Shown here one piece after another: positions 14,690 to 64,000 of a stretch of 64,000 bases of DNA. This stretch comes from Bilabrum cf. latius (lineage: Eukaryota), in contig OZ237742.1 of NCBI GenBank assembly GCA_965178125.1, forward strand, positions 620,001 to 684,000, in the 5' to 3' direction. Numbering within the stretch: the stretch's first letter is position 1; each line of letters begins with the position of its first letter. The position numbers were made by a program, and so were the translations under genes. Below the pieces are notes generated by a model that saw only the letters and a list, made by a program, of their open reading frames with translations, searched no databases and was not told where the DNA came from.

Positions 14690-14854
14690 TTGCTCGCTGC
14701 ATCATTTATTTGCGGTGCATCGCCGTGTATAGAGGCCCCAAACTTCCACCCACAATGTTGCAGAGCTGTGCGGAACCTGTCGGCGATGCTATGCGCGGCG
14801 CTGCCAGGAAATATCCAGCTGCGGTTTGCCATTCGCGCACCGCCTTCTTGCACG

Positions 14855-30444: not shown

Positions 30445-30795
30445 CAATGTCTTTGTTTCAAAGCAAAAACTCGGCTTGTGGCACTTGGGCTGATGACTCG
30501 CCTGAGAGTCGGCTGACACCGCAGACAGAGAGAGGGTCTGCGATACAAGTCTCATTTGGGTGGTAAAATCAAGTACCGTGCACCTACGGTATACCAGATT
30601 TAGCATGAATATGCCGATCTAGAGTCTGCTCGCCGCCCCAAACATTAGATGCGGCAGAAGCGAAATTTATGCGTAACCGTTTTATTTTGTTTCATTGGTG
30701 CATGCGCTGACGGCTTCGGCGGGCCCGGACCAGCCTGAGACTGGCAAGACAGAGTTGGCACCGCAACTTCAGTACAAGTGCACACTGCGTTCAGG

Positions 30796-40024: not shown

Positions 40025-40156
40025 GACACAATTTAAGTTATCTTCAAAACGGATCGCATAGTATTGTCTTCATCTTTATTTCATGCGAACGTCGCAAAAA
40101 CGATCATTGATTTGTGTTTGGTAGGATATGTGCCTGCTTCAGACGATTGGTCTTCG
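40025..40156. promoter_or_regulatory. Putative compact bidirectional promoter (coiled-coil gene / HflX)
   Basis: Head-to-head ATGs about 130 bp apart with an AT-rich spacer. Inferred from geometry only. Confidence 0.45.
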
Positions 40157-42649
40157 ATGAGAAGGGGTCTGGTGTGGTGTGTAAAGCTACTTGCGAGAGC
40201 TCACCGACACGCGCCCCTCAGAACACCGCATAGGTGCGCTTCTAGTGCAATCGTGATCCACCCGTACAAGCATAGGAGCAAGGGATGGACTTCATCGGAG
40301 CTCAAGTCCCAAGCCAGTGATCGTTTGGAAGAAGCGATTGCATTGGCTGAAGCCTTGGATTGGAAAGTGGTCGGATCTGCAGCAAGCCCGACGCGAGCGT
40401 CGTCGGCTGCGCTCCTTGGGCCAGGACAAGTGTCAGACCTCTCCGAAGCAGTGCAGAACCTTGGGGCAAGTGTGATATTTATAGATTTGCACGTGTCTCC
40501 TATGCGCGCAAAATCTCTGAGAGATGCCGTCTCAGCCTCTATCGTGGATCGCAAAGGCGTGATTCTCAGCATCTTTGAGAAGCAAGCTCGAACCAGAGAG
40601 GCCTAGGTGCAGACGCGCTTGGCAAGGCTGTAGTACGAGCGAGCACGAATCGTTATGTCAAGCGGAGAGTTCAGGTTTGACTAGCAACGAGGCGGCGCGG
40701 CTGCTATTGGAGGCGCAGGCGAGTAGCAGATCGAGCTGGTCAGGAGACGCTTGGACAAGGCAATCGGCAAGGCAAAGCGCGAGCTCTCGCAGCTGCAGCA
40801 ATCTGCCCGCCACAAGAATTCATCTCATGCTGCTGAGTCGCCAAGCTCTGTCGAGTCGCGGAGGATGCAATTCTTCAGCCAACACGAGGCCATCGACGAG
40901 CCAGTTGAGCAGGTGCTCCATGGGAGCCAGCGCACCAGTTCGAAGGGTAGCATGGACATCCTGTCCGAATTTAGGCTAGCCCCGCTGGTAAGAGCAGATC
41001 CTGTGGCGCTATCGCGCCGATGGTGCTCGCGGCACAAGTCCCAGAGCTCTGGTGGAGCCCCCATCACGGTTGCTCTAGCAGGGTACACGAACGTCGGGAA
41101 GACCGCGCTGGCAAGGGCGCTGTGCGCTGGCAGTCCGTCTGCAGATGACTTCGAGCCGCACGACAGGGTGTTTGCCACGCTCGACACCAAATCAAGGCGC
41201 TCCCGACTGCCGTCAGCGGCGCATGCAGTGCTTGTGGACACGGTTGGATTCATCACCGAGCTTCCGCTTGAGCTGGTGGCCTCGTTTCGGAGCACCCTAG
41301 GGGAGGTGTCGAGAGCAGACATGCTGATTCACGTGCGGGACGCTTCTGCCTCCCGATTCGAGCAGCAAGGCCAGGATGTACGGGAGACCCTGGCGTCCAT
41401 CGGGGCACCCTTAGACGGGCCGGGGGTCTCTGCCGGGGCTGGGCTGCTCTATGTGACGCCGCAAGGGCAGCTATGCCTGGAAGTGTGGAACAAAGTGGAC
41501 AAGTTGCGCGCCCAGGCAGATCAGCAGGAACGCAGCGAACCGGCTGCTGCACTGCATTGCACGACGTAGCAGCAACAGCGAGAGTAGTTGGGTGATAAAG
41601 AATGGGCCACATTGCAGGACTACTTGGATGATGAGGAGAATGCGATGGAGACGCTCGGTGACGACCAACAGGCTACTGCTGCGGGCATCTCCCTTCAATC
41701 GCCTGGCGGAGGCGACACCTCGGAGACAAATTGCGCGCCGCCTGGGCAGCACGAGGCATCCCGGCACTCGACTCCAATTCCAGGCAGATCCACTCGATCC
41801 TCTACCCAAAGGCTTGCTCTTCTAGATCAATGGGAGCATGGCACGCCGCCGGCATAGGCCTCGGCCTCGGAGGGGAACTCCCTTGGTGTGAGCGCGGAGA
41901 CCGGAGAGGGAGTAGGTCGGCTCCGCGAAGCGATCGACTACGCCCACATGCTGCTATCCGGGGAGGTGGACGTGCTGGTAGCTCTCGACGGGGTCTCGAC
42001 GGAGGACATAGAGGCGCAGGTGTGGCTGTTCGCGCCGGACAGTACTACTGGCGGGAGGGGCAACCAACGGATGGACGGGCCGGGGCCACGACGGGGCCGT
42101 GCTTCCAAGAGACCCGGGTCGAAAGGGCGGCGATCTCGCCGTCAACACGACAAGGGAGATTTCAGAGCAGGGACAAGCACAGGCACAGGCACAGGCGCAG
42201 CAACGTCTTGGCAGTTGGAAAGCGGGGAGGACTAGAGTGGTGAGGACAAGGGTGGTGAGGAAGGCCCAGACTGGAAGGACGGCACCTCGGACGGCCTGCA
42301 GTCGCAGAATTATCGCCAGTCAGAGTTGGCTGCATGGCTACGTTGCGACGCCGCAGTACAAGTCCGGGTCACTGATGTGACGGCTGGAGTCGTCAAACGC
42401 AAACACACCGGTGGTGACATCGGCAGCGCCGAACCCATTTCGGAAGGAGGCAGCGATGAAAGCAACGGACAGAGCATGCAGGAGGCCGCCCCCTTGCTGA
42501 TCAGAGCCCGTATGAATCCAGCAGCAGTAGTGCACATGGCACAGCAGTTTCCAGGGATTTCTCAGAGGCTGTCTCCTGCTGACGATGTGTCGGCCCGGCG
42601 ATTGAGGTACCTATTCGAGCACGCGGTGCACAGTCATGGCCGGGGATGA
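40157..42649 (+). CDS. hflX: HflX-family GTPase (GTPBP6-like), probably organelle-targeted
   Basis: LEEAIALAEAL, IVDRKGVILSIFEKQARTREA[Q]VQTRLARL[Q]Y...D[Q]QRGG...GAGE[Q]QIELVRRR; G1 GYTNVGKT, G2 FATLD, G3 DTVGF, G4 NKVD, G5 SAETGEG. Arg-rich N-terminal leader. Eight TAG; ends TGA. Confidence 0.92.
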
Positions 42650-45029: not shown

Positions 45030-48016
45030 ATGAGTTGGTTTCGATCGTCTGATATGGAGTATATTTCCGTAGTTATTAATAGGTAGAGAGCCCGCGAATG
45101 CATGGAGCGCCTGGGGGACCTTGGGGTAATGCAATTTCGTGATGTAAGGACTGTCTGCGGCGTAACTGGAAACCATTCTTTATCGAATCCTCGCAATGGC
45201 ACATATCACAACACCGTGAATCTATTGCTCTCTCCTCTCAGCTACAAGGAGACACGACAGCTTTCAAACGCGATTTTACGGATGATATTAGGGTATGCGA
45301 TGAGCTGGAGCTCATCCTGGCGAACTTTGAGAAAGAAATGAAGGCGTTCGGCATCGCCCCAGACGTAAGTTGCCATAGAATGTTGAGCACTTGCCTGTGA
45401 GAAGCCGTCAACCCCGCAATGCTGCTCTAGTCATGTCCCAATCCATGCCTACTGCAGCACCTCACGGTGGAAGATTTTTATGATTGGAGAGCGAACGAGG
45501 ACAACGCAAACGCATCGAACTCCAAAGCAGTTCACAGACCTATTCTAGAGTTTTGGCAAGGACGGCTTCAGAGGGAGCACAACGAGTATCAGCACATCAC
45601 GAAAGCACGAGATGAGAACATTCGAGCACGGGCCCACGCCGTCGAGGAAGAAGAAGTCGTGGAACGTCTCGCAGAGCTGTTTGAGGTAGAAACCAACCCG
45701 GGCGGTATTATGGACACAGGAAACGTTGCCGTGACAGATGACGGCAGCATGGCGCTCATGGGCGGGTCTGCCGGCGGATTTGGAGCCGGTGACAGCAAGC
45801 GGGCCGCGCAGCAGCAGCCGCAGCAGCAAGTTGGCTTCCAACACGTTGCAGGCACCATTCCTCGTTCCCAGGTCCGCAAGTTCGAGCGCAGGGTGGTGAT
45901 TGCCAGCCGTCGACAAGCCTACGTGCGGTTCTCTGAGCCTCAATACGAGCTCTACAACCGGCGCGGGGAGGCCGAGGACCGCGTGGTGTTCGCCGTGTTT
46001 TTTCATGCCACTGCGGTGGCGAAGAGGGTGAGGAGGGTGTGCTCGGCCTATGGGTCCAGCCTGTACACGGTGCCTGAGCTGGGCGACCCCATGCGGGCGC
46101 ACGCCGCGGTGTCTGCAAGGCAGAAGGATGTTCGAAGGCACATCGAGGAGCAGTCGGACCTGCTGAGGAGACAGGAGGCCCAGATTAAGACCATGCTCGT
46201 GCGAGCAGCGAGGGACCTCGTCCATCTGAAGCGCGGTGTCCGCAGGGAGAAGGCCATCGCCATCGCTCTCAACCGGCTGGAGCCCGCCTCCGACACGATG
46301 CTGAAGGGGGAGGCCTGGGTGCTGCCCGACAAGCGGGGTGCTGTCGAGGACGCGGTGAGAAGCGCGCACATGGTGCAGTCGACGGGGAATCCGCTGCCCT
46401 ACTTCATCAACACGGTGCCCAAGCAGCACTGGGGCATGCCCCCCACCCACTTCCGCACCAACAAGTTTACCAAGATTTTCCAGGACGTGGTGGACACGTA
46501 CGGAGTGGCCATGTACAAGGAGGTCAACCCCGCTCTATTCACCACGATCAGCTTCCCGTTTCTGTTCGGAGTTATGTATGGTGACGTGGGCCACGCGTCG
46601 ATCATCTTTATTATCGCGGCGCTGGCCATCATCTTCGAGGAGCAGCTGATCCGCGCCAAGCTCAGCGACATGTACCAGATGGCGTTCCAGGGCCGGTACA
46701 TGATCCTGCTCATGGCATTCTTTGGAATGTACTGCGGCATCGTGTACAATGACCTGTTTGGCTTGAACTTCCAGCTGTTTGAATCCAGGTGGTTCCACCC
46801 AGAGGTGGAAGGTCCCAACGGCACCATGGTGGAGCAGCGGGAGGCGGTACGCAGGGAAGTGGACGGCACCAACGTGTATCCCTTCGGGGTGGATCCGGAG
46901 TGGAAGCGCTCGCAGAACGAGCTCTTGTTTCTCAATTCCATGAAGATGAAGATGAGCGTCATCATCGGGATCGTGCACATGTTCTTCGGGCTCACACTGC
47001 GGGCGGCCAACTCGATTTACTTTGGCAATATGGCTGAGCTGGGCCTCGAGGTGGTCCCCATGTTCGTGCTGTTCATCACTTTCTTGGGATACATCGCCTT
47101 CTTGATCCTGTACAAGTGGAGCGTGGATTGGTACGCCCCCGATTCTCCCGGTGGTCCCCCGAACCTCATCGATCTGCTGATCGGTATCCTTCTGAAGCCT
47201 GGCCAGGTAGATGAGCCGATGTTCGAGGGTCAGGCAGCCGTTCACTCGCTCATCCTCGCGATCGTGTTCATCTGCATCCCGCTCATCTTGCTGGGCAAGC
47301 CGATGGCGCTCTGGAGGTGGCACTCCCAGCAGCGGGTGCGCGCGCCCTTGGGAGCTTCGTACGGTGCTTCTGCCCCGCGGCACGGTGGAGGGGAGGGAGC
47401 GCTTGGGGTTGAGGCCGGAGACGCCGACTCGCTCTTCGATGACGACGAGACGGAAGACCAGAGGGCTTCCTCGCTGTTTGCGCCCGCGTCTGGCGCGGCG
47501 AACGGGGGCGACACTGGCGGCCTTTTGCCAGCATCTGCCGCCGACGAGGAGGACATTTTGGGAGGAGACGATGAAACAGCCGCTTTGACTGGTGGGGGCG
47601 GTGGTGGAGGCCATGGCCACGGCCACGACGGGCCTTTTGACTTTGGTGACGAGCTTATGCACCAGGCCATCGAGACGATCGAGTTCACGCTCAACCTCAT
47701 GAGCCACACTGCGTCATACCTTCGACTATGGGCGCTATCACTGGCGCACACGCAGCTCGCAGCGGTGTTCTGGGAAAAGGCCCTGCGAGGCACCATCGAG
47801 ATGGGCAGTCCGTTCGCAGTCTTCATTGGGTTTGGTGTTTTTGCCGGCGTCACGTTTATGGTGCTCTGCATGATGGACGTGCTGGAGTGCTACCTGCACA
47901 CTCTGCGGCTGCACTGGGTGGAGTTCCAGACAAAGTTCTACAAGTCGGACGGGTACAAGTTCCAGCCGTTCGCTTTCAGCCGCATCGTGGACGAGCCGAT
48001 CGACGCCAGCATGTGA
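45030..48016 (+). CDS. VPH1: V-type H+-ATPase V0 subunit a, 3 exons (45030-45143, 45242-45364, 45458-48016)
   Basis: MSWFRSSDMEYIS...NR[TAG 45084]RARECMERLGDLGVMQFRD|LQGDTTAFKRDF...CDELE; PPTHFRTNKFT, YKEVNP, FPFLFGVMYGDVGH, GRYMILLM, NSMKMKMS, HQAIETIEF, SHTASYLRLWALSLAH, LHTLRLHWVEFQTKFY. Ends TGA. Confidence 0.96.
45144..45241 (+). other. Spliceosomal intron (98 nt, phase 0)
   Basis: GTAAGG donor, pyrimidine tract and CTCAG acceptor; restores QFRD-L. Confidence 0.9.
45365..45457 (+). other. Spliceosomal intron (93 nt, phase 0)
   Basis: GTAAGT donor and CTGCAG acceptor; an alternative in-frame acceptor ends at 45430. Confidence 0.75.
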
Positions 48017-48107: not shown

Positions 48108-51100
48108 TCACTGAATTTGTCCAGCAAGGTCATTGTCAGCGCCGGCCTACGCCTTGTCCTGCCCGTTCGTGCCGCCCTCCTCACCTTCCTCGACATCGGC
48201 GTCAGCGCGGACATCTAGTATGTCGAGGGTCGCGCCTCGAGCGTCATCCGCTAGGCCACCACTCATGAATGCCGAGGTTTCTGTCTTTAAGGCTGCCCGC
48301 AAAAGCAGCGCCTCTCGCTCAGCAGAGCGGGCATCGGCGTGGTGATCAGGCTGCACTGAGACCCGAGGCCCGCTGCGGTGCCTCCTGCGGTTTCGATGCG
48401 ATGCATGCGATGCAGCGACTTCGTCATCTTCATCGCTGCTGCTACCATCGCCGCCCTGGAGAATGTCCCGCTTCGTGCCGCTGGCTCCCCCAGACTTGCC
48501 GCCCTTGCCCTTTTGACGCTGTTGATCCTCAGCTGACGCCCCAACGATCCCGAGCGCCTCCAATGGATCCACCTCCTGCCCACCAGGAGCAGTATCACGT
48601 TCGTCATCATGGGCCTCTGCCCCACCGCGATTACCGCTGCTAGAGCCTCCATTGGTGCCATAGCTCGATTCGTCGCCTCCAGACCCGAGGAGCGCAGCTC
48701 GCAGCACGTCCAGAGTGATTCGTCTCGCCCCCTTGCTCTCCTCCTGCCCCTGCCCGCCCACCCCACCGCTACCATGCGTGGTCGAAGGCTACAGACCAAG
48801 CGACTGGACTGCGTCGCGGATCGCCATTCTAGCAGCTTGTGCCTAGCGCCTTGTCGGCAGCCGCGCGCCTGACTTTCCCCGGTGTCCAGACTGCCGACTG
48901 CTGCGGTCGAACTTCCCGAGACCCAACAGCCCAGCAGTCTCCGCGATCGTTGCATCTACTACAGTAGCTGCTAGCTTGGCTCTCCCAGACACCGACTCTG
49001 TCTAAAGGCTGTGAAGAGTGTGCTAGATCTGCTTCATCTGTTTCCTCAGCTTTCTCGCCTGCCGCCTGGCACGCAAATTTTCTTGGTTCTCGTTTCCATC
49101 ACCCTCGCTGTCTGATGACGTTGCTGCCGCAGGCTTCTTTTGTGCTGTTTCATGACCCCTCTCCTCATCTGAAGCACCGCTGTCACTGCGAGCATCGCTG
49201 CTCCACGCACTGTCATCGTGTTCCTCGGGGTCAACGCTAGGAGGCAGCGACTGCATACCCAGCATGGCACGACCTGCCGACCGCAGGAGTCGCTGCGCTG
49301 CAGTGCGCTGCAACAGAGAGACTCCCCGCTTTCCATTCATCAGGCCCGACCATCTCTTCAAAGATCGGCTGCCGGAGGCCCGGGCGTTTATATGGTGCGC
49401 TGTACCCGAGGAGCCGCCACCGCCTTGAAGCACCATGGCCGGACCTGCTGCCGCAACTTGAATCGCAGCAATATTGTCGCTGTCTTCCGACCCATACCCT
49501 CCGTCATCTGCGGCATCGTTGAAGACTCCATCGAGAGCTTGGCCAGGGTTACCGGATGTGCCTTCTGATTCAGCACTCTTTGCGGATCTGCAACACTACT
49601 CCCAGCAGCAGCAGCAGCAAAGCCAGGACAGCACTTTCAAGCAACCTCTCCACGCGCCAGCGCAGCACCGCATGCATGCTCCAGTGGAGGCCTGGCAGCA
49701 AGCGCAGCAGCAGTTACCGCACAGGAGCGCAGCAGACAGAGCAACCACACCGTTGAACACTCCCAGAAGTAGAACGTTCAGCGCAAAGAGCGGTCGTAAG
49801 CACCAATGCGCCTCACGACTGATCCGCTGTGCCGCTTTAAGTGATTCTCGCGACCCAAACGAAGGGCCAAACCTGTTGCCTGTCAGAAGAAGGGCATCCT
49901 GGGCATGAGATACGGCCACCGATGGATACGGGGCCTCTCCTTGTGCCCTCCCCGTCCAGGGTGCCACAGCGACAAGGATGGGTGGGGCGGCCAAGTCGCG
50001 CCGCTCAAGACCAAGGGCATCCTGCATGTCTTGCACTGAGGTGAAGACCTGGGCGTTCTGCACCGCAGAAGCACCGTTGGAGACATCGGTCCCCCGACGA
50101 AGCTCGAAGGCGCGACGCGCCCGCAGCGACTGAGGAATGTACTCAACACCATCTCTCTCCACCCTGCTGCTGATTGTGGAGGGGAGCAGGTTGCTCATGT
50201 TGATCTCCGGATGGCCAGACTTTTGCTGCTTTTGCCCATCGCTTTGCTCCTCTCTTTGCTCGCCCAAGGCGAAGCCCATCTCGTCGTCCAGGTCGCGAGC
50301 GAAGCTGCTCAATTCAGTCTAGGCTACGCCATCCTCGTTAACCCTCGCTGCACCCCCAAGCACCATGCGGGCACCCATTGATGCCAGTCTTGACAACTGT
50401 GTCTGCGCCTCGCGGTGAAGCGACTCGCGATTTGACTGCGGGTCAAGACTGGTCAGGCTCGGGGAGACCCCTTCTACCTACGACGCCCCTGACATGTTCC
50501 GCGCAGCCAAGGCACGTTCACGCACCAATTGGATCCGAAGCAGCGTGCTGGCCGTAACTTCCTCCGCATGGTCCTGGGCAGCTTCCTGGCTGTCAAGCAT
50601 GGCCTCGTCGGCTTCTGATCTCTCCATCATGGACGTGATGAGGCTGTTCCACTGCCGGCCGGAGTCCCGTCGCACAGAGGGGAAAATGCTCGAAATCAAC
50701 GCGATGTAAAGGTTCAATGAGGACACTGCAGTCACCACCACGAATGCCACGAGCATCATGGTGGCCAAGAACCGGTCAGTCGCCTTGAGGTCATCGATGC
50801 CTCCGAGCCCGAGCTGAAATAGACTCAGCATGGCCTTCCCGACCGTGTCGTAGTCCTCGTTCTAGCTGCCGATAGCAATATGCAAGCTGAGCCCAAATAG
50901 GACATGGAATGCTGCCAACAGCAGCAAGTACAGCACAACAGTACCATGCGACAAGGTACTGAATACGCTTACCAGCATTGGCCCTGCGCCAGGGAGCACC
51001 ATCAGAAACTGCACCACGCGTGCCGCTGCCAGCAGCGTAGTAATAGCAATCAGGTCAAACAGTCTGTATATCTGACTACCAACACCGTGCACATCGACGA

Positions 51101-54100
51101 ACAGTAGCGCAGGCGAGTCTGGCACGCTTGGATGAACCCTTGGCTACGAGGCAGTCCCTGCGAACAAGAAGCCAGCATCAGCAGCAGACACCGGCTCGAA
51201 GCCAGTGGATGATTCCGCAGACTCGCCGCCGAACCATAGCGAATGGGAGCTAGTTTCCCACAGCGACGGTGCTAAGGCCCCTCTACTCTTGGGGTCCACA
51301 ACAGCAGCTGCAGAGACGTCTGACGAGGGAATTCCACGGAGTCCGTGTCTCCGGATGGGCTCCAGCACATCTCGACCCTCCACTCGCCATCGCAAGATGA
51401 ACTCCTCCACCAGCAACCAAACCATGACTCCAAGCAGTATAAAATCGTATATCAGCCAGCCCTGAGCCGCTGACCACTGGCACCAACGACCACGCTTTTT
51501 GGATCTACCACTCGCAGACGGTGCCCCGGGCGTAGCCGCTGGACTCACCGTAGGGCTTGATCCTTCAATACGGTCGTACTAGCCTTCAGTGCCGCAGCAG
51601 CCACAGCAGTTGCACCAGTACTGCCAACAGCTGCAAGCCTGACACAAGCACCAGCCGCTGCTGGCTACGGGCTCAGCGAAGTCCGACTCTGTAGTTATCG
51701 CGGACTCTGTGTCGCTGTAGTAGTCCTCGTCCAACTCGCCAGCTGTCGCTTGCTCCTTTGCCGCAGCTGCCGCCTTCGCATCTAGAGCGCTCGCCTGCTG
51801 GTCCTAGTCGTCAGCAGCACCTCGCACAGCGATCGTCTCTGCCAGGGTTGAGCTTGCCCCTGACTGGATAGAACCTTGCCGTAGCATCCTGGATGTCGTG
51901 GCAGCCAGCTGGGCCAGGAACACGATCGCCATGACTAGTTCAAAGGGCAGCGAAGGCAGAAACCTTCCGCTAAATAGAAAGAATGGAAGCGCCGAAACGT
52001 GAACCGATGCTGACCCCAGTGACGAAAGAGTGCCACCGATAGTTCTGTTTGCGCCGACTTCGCCTGTGCCAGCCTCTGATGTTGCGTCAACTGCCCCATC
52101 CTCTGCAGCCACCTGCAGCCTAGTCTCAACGAGGGCCGCGGAGAGGATGCCTGATTGGTCATCGTACAAGGTGAAGGCGATATCGACCTTGAACGTAAAA
52201 CTGTCCACCAGAGGCACCAGAGAAGGGTGGTCGGCCACCTCCTCGTCTTCCAGCACAGACCGAATGCTCGGTAGGATGAGGCCGCCAGGCCGGGTGCACA
52301 GGGACACTCCGTTCATGTCGACCTCGGTAGAGTTGCACAGCAGCGCAGACTCTGCGGGCGACGGCGGCAGCCAAAACCTGTACGCCATGTCCGACATTGC
52401 GCCCGCCGCGCCGGCTAGCACTCGGTCCTGCCTGAGGATACGGTAGTCTTGGAGCGCGTCAGCATCGCTAAGCCTCCTGCTCTGGCCCGTATAGAACCAC
52501 CCTTCCGCGCTGATCTAGGACGATGCCGGCTTTCCTGGAACTCCAGAGGAGGCCACATCTCTGCCGCCTGACCTGCCAGCATGCAAGCCGCAGGCACCCA
52601 GCCCCTGCTTGGTACGCTGCGATGATCGGCATGCGATTCTGCTCTCCAGTGTCTCGCCAAGATCGTCCTCGCTGGACGCACGGATAGACATGGTTGGGAC
52701 TGCCCTGTACCGCGTGAATCGCAGTGGTCCAACCAGCTTAAACTGACCGAACCTGTTGACGAAGGGCGGTGGCAGGCTGCTGTCAACCACCGCCACGCCG
52801 TCTTCAGCAGACTGTTCGGACGATCCTGCATCGGCACTGTCATATCTGGGTGCAAAAATGGGTCCCCACCCATCTCCTGACAGCAGCCCCGTAGTTCCAA
52901 CCGATGGATCAAGGTCGCGCTGCAGAGATATTAGGGAACCATACGCTGCCTGGTCTCCAGCCGCAGTCTAGTTTCCGTTCAGTCGTAGGGCGGTCGCAGG
53001 AATAGGAAGCAGGGTACCAAGGACCCACTGTTTCCACTGCGCACTTGAATTGACGTTTGCTGCCGATGTTGCGAGCACTCTTTCGATCGTCTCGGCTGTG
53101 TCGACCAGACCTCTGGTGGGGAAGTCCCACGCAAATGGCGACACGAGAGACACGACGAACAGAAGAATAGCAAAGAGGAACACGCGCTGCAATGCCTACA
53201 GCAGTGCAAAGTTCTACCGCTCGTCTAGGGTTTGCTTCGCGGATGAAAGCAGTCGCGTCATCGCTTGTGCCTGCTTCTCCCTTCTCGACATCCTCGCCAG
53301 ATCTGCATTTGTTTGCTGGAGCAGCTGCTCTGCCTGCCGTTGGCGTCGCGCAGACCTGACAAACCCTGCGACAACGTCGGCCGTGTCTGTGCCCAGCGAC
53401 CCCTGCCCCAGTGCTTCTGCTTTGACGGTGGTACCCATCGATGGAGTGCTCCTTCTGTTTACCACCATTCGGACGACAGTTGGAGCCACGATTGAGCTGC
53501 CGCTATCGCAGCTGCCATCCTAAATCGCAATGAGCTCATTGATGGGCATCAGGTTTTTCTTCTTTGGTCTATCAGAATCACCATTATCCAGTGTATCTGC
53601 TGACAGCATTGCATCGGATGAGGACAGCCCTGCTTCCAGAGACAGAAGAGCCTCGTTTACCTTGGTCACTGCGCTGCGGGCGCGAGGAGAAGAAGCCACC
53701 CTTTCAGCGCCTGCAAGGCCAAATTCCTTCGCGTGAAACTCCTGAAAGCGCTTCAAGAATTCCTGAGCGATCTGATTCTCTTCATTCACCAGGTGAGCAG
53801 ACGCACCCAGTCCAGCAGTAGGTCCAGAGGAACTTGCGGTGAACTCAGGCCGAATTCCCACTCCTACACCAGCAGTCAGGCGGCGCTTGGATTCGCTCGC
53901 CTGCAGCGGACCCCGTTCACTGATGGATTCCGCAACAGTCCCAGTTCCTGGCCGAGGAGACCTGGAACCACCCGCTGCCCCGACGGTGGCAGCGTGCGCT
54001 GCGGCTGCGAGGGTGTCATGCGTTTGCCCTGACGACGTCGCAGACCCAGGCACGGTGAGCACCTGCCCACCCCCGCTGCCGCCGAATGGTCTCGGCGACA

Positions 54101-57100
54101 TGCGTATGCCTGATGGAGTGGGTGAATTAGAGCCAACTGATGAATCGTGGCCGAAGCGAGCGCTAAGCAGTGCAACTGCGTAGCGTGCCGCAACTGTCTT
54201 CCTAGCAATATCCAGCAAACCAGTCTCCGCACTTTCTACTGCCTGCGAAGAAGATTCAAGCTCTGAGAGCGCAGCCGCTCTCTGTTGCCGCAGCACATGA
54301 AGGTTTGCCCTCGCGGTCATGTGCGCGCGCAGAGCGCGCTGGTACGGCGAGAAACCCGACCCGTCAGCACGAGTGGGATCGGCTCCAAGAGAAAGGAGAA
54401 CAGAGGCTGCCGATCCCTACCGAGTTCGTACCGCCAAGCCCAGGGGTGAGAGTCGTCCGCCGCTCCACGGAGCCATCGACGAGGACCGCGAGCCGTGCGC
54501 ACTAAATAGTGGACTACCCTGGCGTTGAAGCTGTTGTTGCGCTTGCTTTGCCACCTATGCAAGAACAGCACCAGCACCATCGGCCGCATAAGCCCCAAAC
54601 ATTCGATACTGGGGACCCACAGGAAGCAACGGCCTGCACCAGAGAGCCTCTGGGGGCGCCTGGTCGCCACACATGACTTCTGGTGATCCATGTCTCCGCA
54701 GCCATGTCCGAAGCACCGCGCTGGCTCCAGGTACGTAGAACTCTTCAGGAGCTGTCATTTGCTGAGATTCGTTCAGCCTACCGCTGTAGCTCGAAATTTC
54801 ATCATGCGAGGCTCCTTGCGAGGATACCACGCTGCTCTTGCCTGCTGCAACCAATACGTGCAGGAGGGCAGACGCAGCATCACCGTCTAGCATTCCCATC
54901 TTCAGCATCAATCGTGCAAGCAGTGTTTCTTGGACAGTTGCGGAGGAACCAGGCAGTGAAGCCTGCCTTCGATATCGCGGACTTTCGTGAACCGATGTTG
55001 GTTCGTCTGCAGTTCCAGCCGCGAATCCAACTCGCCGAGAAGACGGTGCAGTCTTGCTTGAGCCACAGCATCCATCCCGAGCGCATCGCGACCCACAGTA
55101 CCCGCAGCAGCACGAATAGTTGTGATCAAAGCTCCTGCTCATGGGCCACCACACCATGCAGCAGCCGCAGAAGCAGCACGCCCACACAAGCCACAGCAGA
55201 AGATCACCCAGCCATGAACAGCAGGACCTACGCGGCGAGGTGCTTGAAGCAGCTCTCGGACTATCAGCACTATTTCCACTCAGAAGACCAAGCTTTGCAG
55301 CGCTCTACCACTTCTTTGCAGTTTCAAGTCGAGCTTGACGTTGCACGCCAGGGTCCACTTTGTTTTCGTCGGGTGTCTCGCCTCCTGACGAGCCGTTAGT
55401 GCCGTTCACCTCTTTCTAGGGCCGTTTGAGCACTTGCAAGCGAGCCTCATGGACGCTTGAATGCGAGTTATTCGTCTCGCTGGGGTCTGCAGCCACGTGA
55501 AGGTGGCGCTTAGATACCTGCCTTCCGATCTCCCTTGAAGATGGTGTGCGGCCAGACCTAGACGATATCAAGTTCTCAACGCGAGGAGATGCCGATGTCG
55601 AAGCAGACGACTTGACGCCGGGCTGCAACGCATCGTCGACGTGAATCCAGGGCAGACTTGCGCCTGGTGGGACTGCGGCGAGCGCTCGTTGGAGAGGAGT
55701 AGCTCCTCTATCCTCACCCTTCCGCATTGCGACACCCACACCTTCAACTACGCTAGCAGGAACAGATGGAAGTTCGTCTACAGCATGCACACCATCGGCA
55801 GTCCCACTATTGGAGTCAACGGCAGCATCTACGGCTCTGGTTCTTCCGTCTTTGCCAGTTGTTCCCCACAGTGCGTGTTCTCGTCTCTGCCGATTTCGAG
55901 AATTGAGGACAGCGGCAGCAAGTGACGTACCTGCATCACCATGGACACCTGCATGACGATCAAATGCGACGCTAGCCTACCCAGAGGACGCCGATTCAAG
56001 CTCGTAGCCCCCCTTTCTCGAGGCTGCTGCGCCAATTAATGCCACCATGGAAGCGTTCCCCGAGAGGACCGCTGCATGCAGAGCATTGAAGCCCATTCGA
56101 TCTGCTTGTCGAACCGATGCTCCAGATGCCAGCAATGCGGTGCACAACCTCGCATGACCTCTCACAACCGCCGCGACCAGAGCAGTGATACCCTAAGAAT
56201 CTGCTTTCTGAACTTCAGCGCCAGCATTCAACAGCAGGCGAGCAACCCCCACATTGCCGGCACGGGCTGCCAGCATGAGCGGGGTCTAGCCCAGAAAGTT
56301 GATGCAGTCTACAGCAGGCTCTGGCTACATTTTCGGCCTCCGGTTGCGCATTGCCAAGATAACGCTGGCTAGGCCAACATCGCCGACCAGAGCGCTTCGC
56401 AGCAGCAACTAGCTCCACAGCTGGCGTTTCACTGCGAGGAGAACAGCCTACTCAGTACGTGAGGCCTCAGCTGCAAAATTCGACAGCTTTTCTGTCGCTT
56501 TTCGAATCTATTCGAGGACATCGATTCCTTTGGATTCCGTTGGAGCCACAGAATCAGCGTGTGCTGTGCCTGCGACCTGCCCGCTGATCTTTGCGTCGAT
56601 GGCATCGCCAGGAGAACTAGCAGGCTTGCTTTCACCTTTTCCAAGGTCTCCATGCAGCTCTGGACTTGATCGTGTGACTCCAATGGCCTCGCCGTCCATG
56701 AGCTCCTCCTGCTCCTCGTCGACTTCCAGCTGCCTGATCTCGTTGTGCTCGGCCTCCTCCAACTCTTGTGCGAGCTGAGTCTGCGGCACAATCCTGTAGC
56801 CCATGGCTACGACAGCTTTAACGAGCTCTTCAGCCTAGCTTCGGTTACCACGCTAGTCCTCTGGAGGCAACAGCTCGAACGGGCGCAGCAGGGCAGACGT
56901 CTGAACCTCTACCCTCGTCGTAGCGTGCCGCTCCTGCCTTGCGCCGCGCTTGCCCGCCTGACTCTTGATGATCTTCACAATGGGGCGACCGTCACCATGC
57001 ACCACACCCTTCTTCATTTGCTCTAGAGACCAAGTCTCGTGGTAATTTCTTGCGAGCAATTCGCACAGGCTTCTCTGCACAGAGTCCAGGCGCACTGTGC

Positions 57101-60100
57101 CGACGTCAATGAGCTCGTCGCTGAGAATATCAGCAAGGCTCGTTGCTCGAGATTGTGGTGTAGGCGGTGCGTTGAATTGTTGCATTGTACCCCTTCGACT
57201 GTGCATCATGCTAAGAGATCCACGGCTGCTGGCCCGCGAGCCGAGCGATCGCTCGCTCTAGAACTTGCTTGGTGACGTCGAGCTCACGCTGGGCTGCACT
57301 GCCTGCGCAGATACCACAGAGGCGAAAGATGCTCTCCCATCGACACCGCCAGCAACCACATCGCCCAGTCCCGGACTACTTTTGAGTGCTTTTCCCATGG
57401 CAAGGGCCAGCTTCGGGGGCCTTCGCGATGCGCCCGCTGACCCTTCCGAGCCGGTGCCTGGGCTGTCGCTTGCAGCCGGTGCGGCCAGTATCGCTTCAAC
57501 TCCTTGCTGCAGTCCAGCATCACCACCACCAGTCGTTGCATTGATAGGGGGAAGGGATGGGGTAGAACTGCTACCAGCCATTCTTCTCTCGTCAGCTTCA
57601 TCCTCATTGTCTTTGCCGGGATCATCGTGCTCTTCAAAGCTGCTCACCTGTCCGCTGACCAATTGAACCTGACCTGGGAGCGAAGAAGATGCTGCGGAAG
57701 ACTCGTCTTCATGACCATGTTCGAGGCTCTCTACGTTCTCGGGAGTAGTAGGCTGCGTCTCATCCACACCTGATGATGCGGCAGAGACAACACTCCGATT
57801 CGATTTCCCGAGCATTCCGAGTAAGGCCCTCCTGCTCCTGTCCTTGAGGATGACTAGCCGACTCACGCCCTTCATTAGCTCATTTCCACGCCTGCTTTCC
57901 TTCGACTGCTCTGTCCCAGACCCTGCAGCAGGCTCTGAACCTCCCTAAGACTCGGCAGCACGGCTTCCCCCTTCATCACAGGATGCTGCAATTGACCTCA
58001 CTACGTTGCCTGATGCATGCGAGCCTGCTGCTCCCGGACTACGACTAGATGCGTGAGCAGACTATGAAAGCTGATCGGACATCTGGTGCCCCGTGCCACC
58101 GTCGTGATCATTGTCATCATCGTGCCCCTCCCCGACCAAAACTCGAGCGGCATTATCTCCCATGTTGGTTTCGCGCATCGCATCTGTGCGTCCGTCTTCA
58201 GCCGGCGGGGCCTGCAGCACAAATCCGAGGGCGGCAATGAGCTTAAGGCTGTCATGCGCCGCCTTAAGGTTGTTCTCTTGCCCATCTGCATCCAAGGAAG
58301 CAAAAGTTCGCAACAGCGGGTGCAGCTTCTTGCTGTTGTCACGCTTTGCACCAAATCTCCAGCCCTGACCCAGCCGCATGAGCGCCCATACCGTGTGGCT
58401 ATTGCGCGCCAGTGCTCGCTTCAGGCATTCAATGTGGGCTTTTTTGAGGTCTGTCTCTGCTTCAAGGACCTCTTTGACTTCTGGGGCACCTTCTAGTCGC
58501 GTTGTATCGAGGTTGAAGAGGATGTCCTCGTCCTCTTCGTGGTCAATGTCGGCTTCATCATCGTCATCGTCGTCATCATCGTCATCGTCCTCATCAGACG
58601 ATGAGTCAGAGCTAGCCTCGTCAAGGAGCGCCAGTTCCTCTTGTTCTGAAAGACCCACCGCACCTGCAGCACCAGATGACACGCCTACCTCGGTGTCGAT
58701 GACACCCTCAGCCAGCAATTCCTGCCCCAGAGATGCGCGCTTGACATGTCCATGACCACCTGCCTCCCTTCCGTGGCCGTGCTTGCCATTGAATAGCTAC
58801 CGCACGGCGTCTTCGCTGCTCTTCGCAGTTGACGATGGCGAATGCGGCCCGGTTCCTGGTGATGAATCTACCGTGCCCGGTAGGCTATCAGCAGCCGGTA
58901 CATGTTCCGGCGGTTCGGTAGCCGCAGCCATGCCTGCATCCAGCTAGTCTGCTCTGTGATCGATGCCGACCCCAGCCCCAATTTCCATCTCTCGTCGATT
59001 TCGAAGCATCCTCCGGATGGCACGCTTTCGAAGCTTCCGCCTGGCCTTTCGTTCCTCAAGAACAATCCTGACCTGTGCCTTTGTGAGCGCAGATCGAATG
59101 GCCTTGCGCGTGGCTGGAATGTCCACCGTGACGTCGTCCTCGCCAGTGTCAACCGGCGCTGGCCTGTACGCCATGATCCTCTATTCCTCGCTTTCGTCGG
59201 CCCTGATGGCCCGACATGAGTGTCTAGGGCACTCGCAGAAGCGAGGCGTCGAGGAGAGCCCCAGGCGATGCAGATGTGGGATGGCACTGATCGGGGGCGC
59301 GATCAACGAGGGGGCCCCAAATGGCGCACCTCCCGGCCCTCGAAGCACGAGTGGCGCACCGCCGCCCACGTGAGCATGCAGGCCACCGGCACCGCCAGTG
59401 TCAGCATCCAAAGCATAGCTGTCTGCGACAGCATCCCAGACATACGCCCCGATAGCAGCGACTTCTTGTCCTGCCTCCTGCTAGTACCTGGTGGCTGCCT
59501 CTACCTCTCTGATCGCGGCATTTGGCGATAGGTTTACTCCATGCCTGTGGCACTGCACTGCACATGCCTGGCAGACTACCTTCCCACACCCCGGGAAGTC
59601 GCACCGAACCAGATGCTATCGGATTGGGTTGTTGTAGCCTGCGTACTCAAATGAGCATCCGCACCTGTGCTTTTGCAGCACTGCTGTGCGGACCGCAGCA
59701 GACCACACGTGCTTCGAGACCGGGTTGCGGCGACGAGCCAGTAGACCAGAAAATGCCGGCGCGTCGAATGATAGCACCGACCACTCAAGCATCTCACCAA
59801 GAGTGCGCGCCCCTGTGCGAGCAGGCCTTGCATCTGCTGCAAGAAGCATGGAAGCCCCAGGCCAGTCGGCCTGGCGGAGAGCTAGGTCGCATGCCGTGTG
59901 CCCATACGCAGAAGCTACGTTTCGTCTCGATGTGAGTCGCCACGGCGCAATTGCAGTTGGAAGGGCCATGCCAGCCGTTCGAGTGACCCAGTCAACGCCC
60001 TGGTCCGCGACGACACTAGCCACTCGCAGGACGGCTTCTGCAGGGGTTTCCTTTCTGCCGCTGCTAGTCTCGCCCGGGTCATTCAATAATAGACCGTCTT

Positions 60101-63100
60101 CAGGGTGACCTCGTGTTTCTAGACCTGACACCTCACCACTTGCTGATATGGCCTCGCTGCTGGCATCCAGCATCTGTGCAACCCGTGCTGATAGGGCTAT
60201 CGCGGCAGGGTCTTGCTAATCAGCAGTTGCGGGGTCGCTCGCTGGCCGGTTACTACACTCTTGCTCCCGCAAGCGCTCCAGCAGACTGGCAACGCCAGAG
60301 CGAACTTCATCCCGGATCAGGCGCCCTCTGAGCTGGCCAGGACCGGAGAGGAGATGCAGCGCTGTCTGAGGTGCCCTGGCCTCGATAGCAAGCCGGGCCG
60401 CCTGCACTGTTCCCCCCAGATCGTGGAGCAAGCTGCGGACCACATCGTGCTGTCCAAGCCACGCGGCTAGCATGAGGGGAGTGTACCGTTCGCGATTGGT
60501 GCCGCGACCGGGATCCGCTTCTAGGATGCAGGAAGGCCCAAGCAGTTTGCTCCACGACACGCAGGCCAGCGTGCCGGCCTTGGACCCCTCATGGAAGGGT
60601 GTCCAGCCCTCCTAATCGCCCATTGAGGCCACTCGGGCTACCTGATCGTGCGAGAGGCCGGCAAGCATCGCCATTGCGCACCTTTGGGCCATCATGATGG
60701 CGACCTTGTGTCCCCTGGCCACGTCGCGCTGCGATGGCGACATAGCAGCGAGTAGTTTGGCTTGCGGAGATTTCTCAACTGCGTCCAGTCGGCTGCCACC
60801 TGTCAGTCCGCGCCTTGACGTCTGCCCCATCGCGGGACTGGCACTCGGCGCCCCCCGAAAGGACGAGTACCCCGTACCCTTTCGCATTAGAGAAGGTTCC
60901 TTGCCCTTGGCTTCGCCCCCGTCTTTGTCGAACACGGATCGCCGGCTGCCAGCAGGCAGCGGGCCCATCGCAACCGATGCGTGAGACATGACCGAGGTGC
61001 GGCTGTCCCATTTCTGAAGCTGGCCTCTGCCACTGGCTTTCCTTCCGCTTCGTGTCCTCCCGAGACCGCGCGCGGCCCGCAGCATGATCGCCCCGCCCGG
61101 CATGGGGGCACTTCCGTCTGCCTGCCCACCAGGTCCCCCGCTGCCTCCGCCGCCAGCGGTGAGCCCAAGCCTTGCAGCTCGCTTGTGCTCCTGCGTGGCC
61201 AGCCGCTGAGACAACTCTCGCCTCTATCGCCTTCTGCTCGCGCGCACTTCTTCCCACTGCATCCTCGCTAGCGAGCTGGACAAGGCGTAGTGCAGCGGAT
61301 TCTTGCCAAAGCTTGACTTGACGGCACACCGAGCTCCGGCAGCTACTAGCAAAGCTACGCAGCGCGGGTGGGCAGCCCTGCAGGCCATGTGCAACGGGGT
61401 TAGCCTTTCAGTATTCTCCCGTGCATTTGGGTCTGCTCCCGCAGCGAGAAGAAGTGCAACCACCAGGGCATTTCCGGACGAGGCTGCGAAGTGGAGCGCG
61501 GTTTCACCTCCACCGACCTTGGAGTCGCATGCCGCCGGGTCCGCCACGACATCACTTGCTGCAAGCAGCTCGAGCGGGGCCGAAACGTGAGATGCCAGCG
61601 CCGGCTTGGGCTACACAATGAGCTGCTGCTAGTTGGGTGCCAGCGATGAAGCTGATCTTGCCTCCGTTTGAGGCGGGGCGGGGCTTGCAATAGATGGCGA
61701 GACTCCGGGCTAGATAGACGATGCGGTTGCAAGCTCCGGACTACGAGCACTTGGGGTCGCAACCAAGCCGATAGCATCAGTGGCACCGCTGAAGCTGGGC
61801 TTGCGACCCTTGCTGCCACCCGTGTCTGGGCTGCCAAAGACCGGCGTGCGCGGCTGCCTAAACCGGATGCCCCCAGTCCCTCCGTTCGTGGCGGACCCAG
61901 ACGGCACTCCACCCCGCTTCGGAGAGAACAGAGGTCCGCGGCGAGGTCCGTCTTCCACGAGCTCACGCAGCCACTTGCGCCTACCAGCCGCCGTCACCAC
62001 CTCTGGCCACCGCCGCCCCGTCAGCAAATCAGTGAGCAGCCTTCGGAAGTAGAACGGGTCTCGGTTCTTCTGCTACACCATGCTGACGCCACCAGCATGA
62101 GACCCGCGTCTGGCGGCGAAGGAGCGGCGGCGATGCTGGGAAGATCGGCGGCTGTGCGTGCTCTTCGCCTCACTCGCTCCTGACGCCTCACGGCCGCCCG
62201 TCGCATCGCCCTCAGCCTCGGTGTCTCTTGCAGCCTGCAGAGCAAGATGCAAGGAGACGCGCCGCTGAAGCTTCGGACGGGCAGACGAAGGCTCCTGGCC
62301 CTTCTCGTTGTTTCCAGACGCCTCTTCTTTGCTGTCTCGCATGGATGCACCGGCAGGCCCTCCACGAGTCCCCTGCCGCTCGACCGCAGATGCGCTACCC
62401 ATGGGGGTGCCCCCCGCCATGCTGTCCTGGTGGCCGGGAGGAGGGTTCACCGTTGAGTCGATTCCCAGCTCTGTCTTAATCTTGGCTTGCTCTTCCTCGT
62501 TGATGAAGCGCATGGATCTCCTCTTGGCTTTCTGCAGGATGCTGCGGCGACGAGCGGTGGATCGTCTGCGGGCACGCAGAACCGTGTCCTCCCGATCTCC
62601 GCCAATATCGTCCTCATCGCCATCAGCAACCGTAGCGTCGGGTTTGCGGCCTGCCAGCACGGAGGATCGCACGATGCTAGCGGTCGCAAGTGAGATGTCC
62701 GCTTCATCTGTGGCGAGAGCGTCGAGTACCACGGCGACACACCGAGCAGCGCGAACTTCAGAGGGTCGCAGCCACGTGGACGATGGAATCGCAGGGCACA
62801 TCCAAGACTCACCACTTGCATGGTGCGGCCCTGGTACAGCTGCCCGGCTGCCTGCACGGCTTCTGCCTGTCGCACCTGCTGCGCTCTGCCTCTCCGGGGC
62901 AGCTGTTGAACCAAGGATCGGCGGCGGCAGCAGCTGGAATGCCTTGGATCTGCTTGCGACTGTTGTGCCAGAGTGTCGCTTGCTGCCACGAGGACTAGAG
63001 GGGTGGGGACCCAAGCTCCCCGGCTCGAGCAGCTCCGCAGCTTCGTCTGCAGTGATACCACCTGCTCCGACCCCACTCCGACTTCGTGAAGACGCGCTGT

Positions 63101-64000
63101 CACCACTGACGCTGTTACCGTCCTAAGTGGACCTGCGAGGAGCCAATGGCGGGGCAAGGATCCCAGCATCCGTCGCGGATGCCGTGATTTCGGCTTCCAC
63201 GGCAGCACACCAGAGAGGCGGCTTGGGACCGAGCCCGTCCCCGCTGCCGGTCGCTTCTTCGTCCGAGTCATCTGCAGCGATTGCTGGCGCTGTGGGCCCA
63301 CCCAGGCATCTAGGCACTCCCTAGAACGCTTCTTTCTGCGGGTCAGTGCCCGCATAAATCTTGTTCATGAGCTTCAGCTTGCCACCCAGGATGGCGCTCC
63401 TGGACATACGGAAGCTGGTTCCAGAATCCCAGCCCGCGCGACTTGAAGTGGCGGTGCCGCCGCTGCCAAATGGCACGTTGCTCTCCCGATTTGCGTTCTT
63501 GCTGCCCGAGGCATGCGAGCCCCGCGAGGCACTGGAACCCCTTCGTTGCCGCACGGGTGGGCTCCCGATCCCACCCATTCGCGGATATTCCTGATCGCCG
63601 CCGCCGCCCCCGCCGCCGCTGCTGCCGAGCTAGGGGTTCTACGGCGACCGCCTGCGGAGAGCGGCACGAAGCAGTGCTCTCTTTGCCCTGTCTCGTTTGT
63701 CTGCCGATCCTTTGGACCTTGTGCTCTTGCCATCGCTGGACTTGGCTTTTGATTTGGACGGGCGCTGGTCCAGCTGCAGCCACGGCCGGCCAGACGACTC
63801 CACCGCGCCCCAGCCATGCGGCCCTGCCTCACCGTGAGTAAACACGTCTTCGTCTTCAAATTGAAGCCGGGCACCGTCTGGGCGTCTGGACATTCGGTAC
63901 GTGCAAAGCATGTGGAGCCCGTTCCAGCCAAGGGGCAATGCGCTTACCGATGGATCGGCGCCCCGGCGCAGCCAAAGCATGATACCGGTAGGATCTGCTC
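48108..64000 (-). CDS. Giant polycystin/TRP-type cation channel with ankyrin repeats, UBR-box-like zinc finger and two RyR repeats (PKDRR-like; >5,290 aa, starts beyond the window)
   Basis: One frame open from 63998 to TGA 48108 apart from about 49 TAG. Ankyrins (GETALHFAA, LTPLHMAC, YTPLMLAA, G[Q]TPLMLAA, GFNALHAA); RyR repeats (LARNSHTVW...GWRFGAKRDNSKKLHPLLRTF near 58.2-58.4 kb; LARNYHETW...LLRPFELL near 56.8-57.1 kb); CSF...[Q]HLVRC...CQACAVQCH...FCEC near 59.2-59.7 kb; channel TMs and pore IGS[Q]NEDYDTVGKAMLSLFQLGLG...LNLYIALIS near 50.7-53.2 kb. Confidence 0.87.

Follow-up and report, generated by a model that had tools for sequence, protein, structure and literature searches.

The window analysed here, a stretch of 64,000 nt from the genome of the marine flagellate Bilabrum cf. 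latius (G000:C8:620001-684000, in an assembly of 48.6 Mb and 111 contigs), holds most of a minus-strand gene for a giant channel protein. As judged from its sequence, this protein joins a nicotinamidase-like domain, ankyrin blocks, a UBR-type zinc box and two ryanodine receptor (RyR) repeats to a pore of the TRP type. It is predicted to be a TRP-type cation channel that is modulated by nicotinamide and an adenine nucleotide, a reading to which a probability of about 0.5 is given, and it apparently represents a conserved and undescribed TRP channel family of Bigyra.

With TAG read as glutamine (Gln), the minus-strand frame is open from position 63998 to a TGA at 48108 and encodes 5,296 aa with 49 TAG, no TAA and this one TGA; each of the five remaining frames contains 60-146 TGA over this DNA. 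In 50 base shuffles, which served as the control for the giant frame, the longest frame was 592 codons. The gene runs 1,468 nt past the end of the window to an ATG at G000:C8:685468, and as a whole encodes 5,786 aa in a single frame with 50 TAG read as Gln, no TAA and a TGA stop. The part inside the window (48108..64000, minus strand) corresponds to residues ~490-5786 and the TGA. A first-pass annotation of the window had proposed a single frame of more than 5,290 aa with TAG as Gln and had advised extending the contig beyond 64000; the frame and its code were borne out, and the gene is real and larger than first noted. It had expected about 30 fragments under the standard code, whereas the in-window part is actually cut into 50 pieces. 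A contig from run X5, which belongs to another study, runs across the nicotinamidase and UBR regions and the two RyR regions without a difference or gap in the 9,583 nt compared. This supports the assembly and says nothing of the transcript. Run X1 spans all 10,000 nt compared and may be the assembly's own source. The X5 contig is 17,490 nt long, begins 115 nt upstream of the ATG, with no cover from X5 further upstream, and its end would fall 14 nt past the stop. It looks transcript-like; the type of the run is not on record, and this resemblance was not counted as evidence.

Domain architecture and the channel family

The architecture of the channel protein is firm, and how the channel is gated is what we infer from it. 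Pfam gave matches to ankyrin repeats (E 5e-34), to RyR repeats (E 1e-28; two repeats, the second one split) and to Ion_trans (E 5e-6, 26.4 bits with a cut-off of 25). PKD_channel (PF08016) scored just below its cut-off (E 1e-4, 22.3 against 22.4 bits), so that the RyR and PKD profiles named in the first-pass annotation both matched, the latter marginally. Its list of ankyrin clusters, a UBR-type zinc box, two RyR repeats and a TRP/polycystin-like pore stood as well; overlooked was the N-terminal nicotinamidase-like domain (residues 4-221; G000:C8:684806-685459, minus strand), which lies beyond the window. This domain matches PF00857 with E 2e-17, and its seven PDB matches are all PncA-type entries, six of them named nicotinamidase (best 2wt9, E 1e-37).

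All further modules lie on the minus strand within the window. An ankyrin cluster (residues 1297-1400, 61269..61580; Pfam and ortholog alignment) is followed by an ankyrin-like block (1600-1690, 60399..60671) and a conserved ankyrin-like or helical block (1837-1930, 59679..59960), both defined by ortholog alignment, the latter preceding the zinc box. The box itself, a UBR box of the UBR4 type by profile and fold match (1935-2085, 59214..59666), is split by an insertion of ~90 aa. The boxes of 11 orthologs have eight Cys and one each of His, Gln and Thr as invariant residues, and a profile built from these boxes retrieved UBR-box proteins only (nine of nine; best UBR4, 8j9q, E 3e-7). The model of the channel protein's own box matched 8j9q with Z 6.0 (root mean square deviation (rmsd) 2.9, 68 aligned), a Z below 8 not being decisive alone. 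Pfam zf-UBR is silent on the channel protein and matches weakly in five of the 11 ortholog pieces; the UBR box claimed earlier is upheld by the family profile and the fold match. Its Cys/His pattern and fold are those of UBR4/BIG, from which it differs in being split by an insertion and in lying within a channel, where no ligase domain was detected. Then come RyR repeat 1 (2320-2430, 58179..58511) and, after ~350 aa, RyR repeat 2 (2787-2897, 56778..57110), an ankyrin cluster C-terminal of the pair (2990-3160, 55989..56501; Pfam and ortholog alignment) and a last ankyrin-like block (3655-3730, 54279..54506; ortholog alignment).

The helix labels S1-S6 and the terms TOP and TRP helix are used by convention. 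S1 (residues 4086-4118, 53115..53213; hydropathy and ortholog alignment) is followed by a large S1-S2 loop (51969..53114) that ends in three TOP-like beta strands in the model, Polycystin_dom matches being found in orthologs only. S2 (4503-4527), a Cys-rich low-complexity S2-S3 loop and S3 (4668-4696) occupy 51381..51962 (hydropathy and model). S4, S5, the pore helix, the filter QLGLGGIDD from 4885, S6 and a TRP-like helix (residues 4803-4950, 50619..51062) were located by Pfam, alignment and searches. With six hydrophobic helices, an S5-S6 pore loop and a TRP-like helix, whose Trp is kept in 15 of 15 aligned members, the pore is by sequence of the six-helix TRP-superfamily type. The 60 listed matches of an S4-S6 sequence search are all TRP channels (TRPC6 8e-5, TRPV3 5e-4, PKD2 1e-3), and for the pore Foldseek listed no channels other than TRPV and TRPC (best E 1e-4). 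In a wide fold search Nanchung-Inactive (Nan-Iav), Nav, TRPC and PKD2 were tied, the scores running from Z 11.8 for Nan-Iav (rmsd 5.1, 215 aligned) to Z 11.0 for PKD2 (rmsd 5.7, 207 aligned).

The PKD_channel match and the large S1-S2 loop with TOP-like strands recall Polycystin-2 (TRPP), whereas S4-S6 resembles TRPC6 and TRPV3 no less than PKD2. The TOP domain profile PF20519 had no match on the channel protein and covered ~50 residues in P0014 (2e-6), P0022 (1e-5) and P0015 (1e-3); the modelled S1-S2 strands have a predicted local distance difference test score (pLDDT) of ~60. As the resemblance to polycystins comes down to the long S1-S2 loop and weak profile matches, no TRP subfamily is assigned. 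The ankyrins and the TRP-helix Trp are features that we take to be traits of group-1, as opposed to group-2, TRP channels. From its kinship with TRP channels the pore is presumed to be permeable to Ca2+. The hydrophobic stretches 3416-3444 and 5218-5290 were rejected as conserved helices, as they are missing from the ortholog alignments. The latter is a hydrophobic Cys-rich C-terminal segment (49599..49817, minus strand; hydropathy), absent as a conserved feature in compact orthologs, and a probable palmitoylation patch; Cys clusters can be sites of palmitoylation.

A HMMER search with the channel region against 1.84 billion representatives gave 78 matches, of which the 23 long ones were scanned for domains. 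Five carry nicotinamidase-like, ankyrin, RyR and channel domains (P0010, P0011, P0012, P0022 and P0041), three carry ankyrin, RyR and channel domains (P0014, P0015 and P0024), another 14 are channels that lack RyR, and P0008 gave no Pfam match. When the UBR-RyR-RyR region was used in a word-seeded search, six of 1,583 candidates came back, all of them family members, and P0089-P0093 were added. Later searches added P0213 and the fragment P0095, which was the one new sequence in a family-profile search that scored 8,000 candidates, the remainder being ankyrins. Neither the channel-region and UBR-RyR-RyR searches nor the family-profile search brought up a labelled PKDRR sequence. Eleven compact proteins of 1,950-2,670 aa (P0010-P0012, P0022, P0041, P0089-P0093 and P0213) possess all modules in the same order, namely nicotinamidase-like, ankyrin, UBR4-type zinc box, two RyR repeats, ankyrin and six-helix TRP pore. 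PF08016 was above its cut-off in seven of the eight scanned RyR-carrying members. The named members, a minority, are all Bigyra: Hondaea fermentalgiana, whose GBG29206.1 is a compact standard-code ortholog, Cantina marsupialis (partial) and Cafeteria roenbergensis (channel-only models). CAK9073272.1 is labelled ryanodine receptor 3 in the database. In the literature, most subscription journals being outside reach, no description of a nicotinamidase-RyR-TRP family was found, which agrees with the novelty claimed for the architecture. The family thus defined is one whose members databases label ankyrin protein, ryanodine receptor 3 or truncated polycystin. Long protist ankyrin-polycystin channels without RyR were also seen (P0048 from Cyanophora, P0028 from Euglena, P0047, P0067, P0071 and P0076); domains on such proteins include SPRY, LRR, CVNH and a beta-propeller.

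An S4-S6 tree was built from 60 of 86 rows, each with at least 115 profile columns and none a labelled PKD2 or PKDRR. In this tree 18 labelled rows and six unlabelled partial ones form one clade (97/87), in which the channel protein and Cafeteria are sisters (99/96). The labelled rows form no clade by themselves because unlabelled ones nest among them, one of these being a cluster-mate of P0213. By this placement the host is apparently close to Cafeteria. In Cafeteria the ortholog is annotated with the channel part alone, at a length of 872-1,192 aa (KAA0167252.1, KAA0151118.1, KAA0172892.1 and KAA0164868.1; P0008, P0084 and P0085). Its model starts just before S1 and has a short C-terminal motif in common with the channel protein. 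The N-terminal modules of Cafeteria were probably missed in annotation or split off into another gene model.

Near-complete orthologs are 1,950-2,735 aa long, and only 1,128 of the 5,786 residues are covered by matches from at least three of 14 orthologs; the remaining residues are low-complexity insertion, as in neighbouring genes. Cys clusters are present in Cafeteria and in none of the 14 compact orthologs. The giant size and the Cys-rich patches, which had been counted as part of the architecture, are therefore present here and lineage-specific, and were rejected as family traits. The surplus of 3,100-3,800 residues over the compact orthologs is read as disordered padding specific to the lineage. 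Some insertions are conserved at 60-66% identity in close relatives and are hence probably coding.

Candidate ligand sites in the nicotinamidase-like domain and the RyR repeats

In the nicotinamidase-like domain the catalytic D15 and C157, the metal ligands D56, H58 and H87 and the pocket residues F20 and W84 are retained, and the cis-peptide Gly-x-Ala is kept in the channel protein and most members. The position of the catalytic Lys is occupied by S112, which leaves the Asp-Lys-Cys triad incomplete. This Lys is replaced in all 13 fused domains (by Ala in nine, Ser in two, and once each by Thr and Ile, the Ile alignment being uncertain) and is present in the stand-alone nicotinamidase of the genome, on contig C24, and in three of three outside controls. 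The catalytic Cys is kept in 10 of the 13 and gone in three, as expected of a pseudo-enzyme. Among the 11 fused domains that cover the positions, the Asp is kept in eight and the full D/H/H metal triad also in eight. Activity was reported to be undetectable in MtPncA K96Q (PMC3025910), and 1.45% of it was left in OiNIC K104A (PMC3581539). A retained pocket together with the loss of the Lys in distant lineages suggests a ligand-binding pseudo-enzyme, and the domain is probably disabled; with the Lys replaced throughout, an active nicotinamidase is the disfavoured reading. A search for other nicotinamidase fusions (reach 362-2,000 aa, 2,031 candidates) gave four matches, all unrelated. P0002, P0004 and P0005 are other nicotinamidase-family fusions, whose partners we take to be a protein kinase, a nitrilase with NAD synthase, and a class II tRNA synthetase domain, respectively; P0002 and P0004 retain the catalytic Lys.

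The genome gave two RyR-family matches, both in the channel gene (two of two candidates scored, a lower bound). Repeat 1 most resembles Repeat 1 of RyR (E 1e-12 to RyR1), and repeat 2 matches Repeat12 entries more weakly. Relative to its Trp, W2361, repeat 1 has H2358 at W-3, R2365 at W+4, R2376 at W+15, H2383 at W+22 and N2400 at W+39. Over 14 members the His at W-3 is found in 14, the Trp in 13, a basic residue in 10 at W+4 and in 11 at W+15, and the His at W+22 in 13. In Repeat12 of RyR, Trp881, Arg885 and Arg896 are reported to bind AMP-PCP (PMC12627627). In the phage protein RyDEP, H75, W78, H100 and D117 act on ADP-ribose signals and the first three of these bind ADP-ribose, and six of eight RyDEP homologues bind 2'/3' cyclic ADP-ribose (2'/3'cADPR) without cleaving it, according to the available text (10.64898/2026.05.28.727677). 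The repeat is the same as in these two systems, with the same His/Trp/Arg/Arg/His nucleotide-binding residues. By its sequence, then, repeat 1 carries the residue set for adenine-nucleotide binding, in phage proteins in part that of cADPR.

W+39 is the position of the catalytic Asp of RyDEP, as mapped from the spacing. It is Asn in 10 members and Asp in two; the channel protein thus lacks the His-Asp dyad of RyDEP, and its Asn, as in animal RyR, predicts binding and not hydrolysis. Repeat 2 has its Trp (W2813), and the equivalent of Arg1019 falls within an inserted loop. In the AlphaFold model repeat 2 has a pLDDT below 50 over most of its length and no confident fold, so that the model does not show whether a clamshell forms across the 350-aa insertion. 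The channel protein differs from RyR in its TRP pore, and no MIR, RIH or SPRY domain was matched (for MIR and RIH by Pfam over the whole protein); the filter aligns with TRP filters and not with GGG(I/V)GD.

Predicted mechanism and alternative explanations

One gene would encode one subunit of a tetrameric TRP-type cation channel. The nicotinamidase-like domain would bind nicotinamide (or nicotinate) without efficient turnover and the RyR pair an adenine nucleotide (of the ATP/ADP or ADP-ribose type), and the ankyrin stacks would relay these binding events to the gate. The flux of cations, probably Ca2+, would thereby follow NAD metabolism, and the UBR box probably recruits a protein partner. 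One channel may in this way sense NAD breakdown products. TRPM2, which carries MHR domains, may be the best model for how the family works: it too joins a TRP channel to an enzyme domain for an NAD metabolite, and in one lineage that domain has lost its catalytic activity. Human TRPM2 is reported to be activated by ADP-ribose and to have a catalytically inactive NUDT9-H domain, which is an active enzyme in invertebrate TRPM2 (PMC6461439). The channel protein differs from TRPM2 in that its domain has a cysteine hydrolase fold, not a Nudix fold, is N-terminal and has nicotinamide as predicted ligand, and in its ankyrins and RyR repeats. Nicotinamide was described as an agonist of OSM-9/OCR-4 and Nan-Iav (PMC5064019), and Naam as removing it in chordotonal neurons (PMC9683716). 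In these systems ankyrin-bearing TRPV channels are activated by nicotinamide and a nicotinamidase, PNC-1 or Naam, controls the ligand; there the enzyme is separate and active, whereas here it is fused and lacks the catalytic Lys. The analogy suggests that the nicotinamide sensing by TRP channels of worms and flies arose separately in stramenopiles via enzyme co-option, much as TRPM2 links the sensing of ADP-ribose to an enzyme domain.

A more specific version, in which nicotinamide at the silenced nicotinamidase and ADP-ribose or cyclic ADP-ribose in the Repeat12 pocket jointly open a Ca2+-permeable TRP pore, is considered unlikely. If true, such a coincidence detector would mean that marine flagellates hunted by viruses have a eukaryotic means of reading NADase signals, TIR-type or other, and would provide a simple system for asking whether cADPR can gate a channel through RyR repeats. 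The genome contains two TIR-domain matches (G000:C5:1524232-1524498 and C4:1216023-1216358), the one on C5 after several hydrophobic helices and Cys clusters; these make a detector of NAD cleavage possible without supporting it. A search for CD38-type cyclases gave no match anywhere and is hence uninformative.

Several observations weigh against modulation by nicotinamide and an adenine nucleotide. The retention of Cys157 (10 of 13) and Asp15 (eight of 11) would also suit an enzyme that is slow or has changed its specificity. As for the Lys mutants in print, they were destabilised or refolded from inclusion bodies, and the drop in their activity is hence an impure measure of catalysis. Metal or pocket residues are missing from P0022, P0092 and P0093, and in P0015 no nicotinamidase domain could be detected, which implies that nicotinamide binding is not universal in the family. 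PMC12627627 reports no detectable binding of AMP-PCP or ADP alone to isolated RyR Repeat12 in isothermal titration calorimetry. Four of 14 members lack the basic residue at W+4 and P0012 lacks the Trp. Finally, the filter shows little conservation among family members, and confidence in the two structure models is low overall (mean pLDDT 49.8 and 46.8).

The decay of pocket residues in several members and the loss of the domain in P0015 would also be understood if the nicotinamidase-like and RyR modules were structural or protein-binding and the channel opened in response to force, temperature, lipids or the binding of a partner to the UBR box or ankyrins. RyR domains have been proposed as interaction sites (PMC4820453, in the part available), and the nearest Atlas look-alikes are ankyrin-rich TRPA/NompC-like clusters, all below 0.9 and leads only. 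However, the metal ligands, the pocket aromatics and the Repeat12 His/Trp/Arg/His are retained at just 22-47% identity to P0041, which argues for ligand binding and makes a mere scaffold doubtful. Rather improbable is a chanzyme, in which the domain would still act as a cysteine hydrolase, slowly or with a changed specificity, and remove nicotinamide or a similar amide close to the channel; it would unite in one chain the Naam and TRPV that are partners in insect stretch receptors. The Asp, Cys, Gly-x-Ala and metal ligands retained here and in most members agree with it, as do the residual activity of OiNIC K104A, the active invertebrate TRPM2 and the role of Naam cited above. Yet the Lys is gone in every fused domain and the Cys also in three, and the genome holds a separate, intact nicotinamidase on C24.

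The first-pass annotation had regarded the protein as an extension of the PKDRR family. This membership was rejected on domain order and host. PKDRRs have their RyR pair near the C-terminus, after the pore, and in the available text are described only from oomycetes (PMC4820453, PMC7399828); here the RyR repeats (2320-2897) precede the pore (4086-4950), as in every member that has both, and the named hosts are Bigyra. A derivation of pore and RyR pair from the oomycete PKDRR lineage, with the pair shifted N-terminal of the pore, could be envisaged from the stramenopile hosts, the PKD-like pore and the two RyR repeats. The PKDRR filter motifs are LGA (A) and AG(D/E) (B) (PMC7399828); the channel protein has LGG followed by two Asp, P0014 and P0015 have AGE and AGD, as in PKDRR-B, and other motifs are found elsewhere. 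PKDRRs are mostly 1,000-1,500 aa long. The opposite domain order stands against such a rearrangement, and the present family adds nicotinamidase-like, ankyrin and UBR modules, none of which is found in the PKDRR rows of Table S3 of that survey as available. Moreover, the three Cafeteria PKDs placed near PKDRR have accessions other than those of the Cafeteria ortholog found here (PMC7399828), and the UBR-RyR-RyR search gave family members only. This origin is thus very improbable. Hardly credible is an artefact, either an assembly chimera or separate genes joined by a wrong code. The Cafeteria ortholog is annotated as channel-only, but 5,786 codons free of TAA and TGA, the eleven standard-code orthologs that are single proteins and the X5 contig that bridges the modules all speak against it.

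The channel protein and its orthologs put RyR repeats in a eukaryotic channel family besides RyR and PKDRR, the only two in the accessible text of a 2020 survey (PMC7399828). The compact standard-code orthologs such as Hondaea GBG29206.1 make it testable whether the pseudo-nicotinamidase gates the channel and whether the RyR repeats couple ADP-ribose signals to the pore.

Genetic code of the host, neighbouring genes and other genome features

Opposite the TAG codons of the channel gene, Gln is the commonest residue in the orthologs (28 of 111 aligned cells); for comparison, Gln stands opposite CAG in 55 of 277 and opposite CAA in 24 of 104. In the zinc box the codon of the invariant Gln1951 is a TAG, and eight of eight aligned orthologs have Gln there; the stand-alone nicotinamidase gene has a TAG where three of three controls carry Gln. 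An Rfam search, in which the tRNA scan took in 25 of 30 tRNA loci, revealed a CUA-anticodon tRNA (G000:C23:907607-907679, minus strand) with a clean cloverleaf and a D-arm shared with tRNA-Gln(UUG). Of 43 frames of at least 400 codons in the DNA examined, shadow frames included, 34 end in TGA and nine in TAA. UAA as Gln (table 6) was rejected: the channel gene has 50 TAG and no TAA, the 3' ends of long frames are unchanged under table 6, and the stand-alone nicotinamidase gene terminates in TAA. The nuclear code of the host is therefore UAG=Gln with UAA and UGA as stops, and the CUA tRNA backs it. Five of six standard-code fragments of close relatives end just before a Gln of the channel protein (three of four distinct positions; Gln makes up 4.5% of residues), which indicates that the code is probably common to these relatives. 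Gln for UAG only is given for Iotanema, Protocruzia and phyllopharyngean ciliates in the available text of a 2024 paper. No report of a stramenopile with UAG=Gln and UAA/UGA=stop was found among the papers listed by literature searches, and the code of the host, with UAA as stop, is a separate and rare finding.

The V-ATPase subunit a gene (45401-48016 of the window) is convergent with the channel gene, with 91 nt between them. Other genes in the window are those for a KIF1-binding protein (10445-12958), an SNM1-like nuclease (30739-33024) and HflX (40037-42649); several of these four neighbours look inflated by low-complexity sequence. A 1,3-beta-glucan synthase of 2,953 aa (21805-30666, minus strand) has Cys clusters and a long N-terminal part without assignment. 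At 14690-16726 (plus strand) a PH domain, which alone was matched, is joined to a multi-helix Cys-rich membrane region that is tetraspanin-like by eye. A further giant frame of more than 3,433 aa (1-10302, plus strand), open at its start and with 30 TAG, had no convincing Pfam match.

Two very different 18S genes are present in the assembly, a divergent one of 1,700 nt in a tandem array (G000:C12:942205-1029808) and a single copy of 1,802 nt (G000:C95:6099-7900), the latter presumably of dinoflagellate look. This suggests a second eukaryote in the assembly. G000:C111 carries a tRNA cluster, including a tRNA with a TCA anticodon, and a weak match to small-subunit rRNA, and is probably the mitochondrial genome with TGA=Trp.

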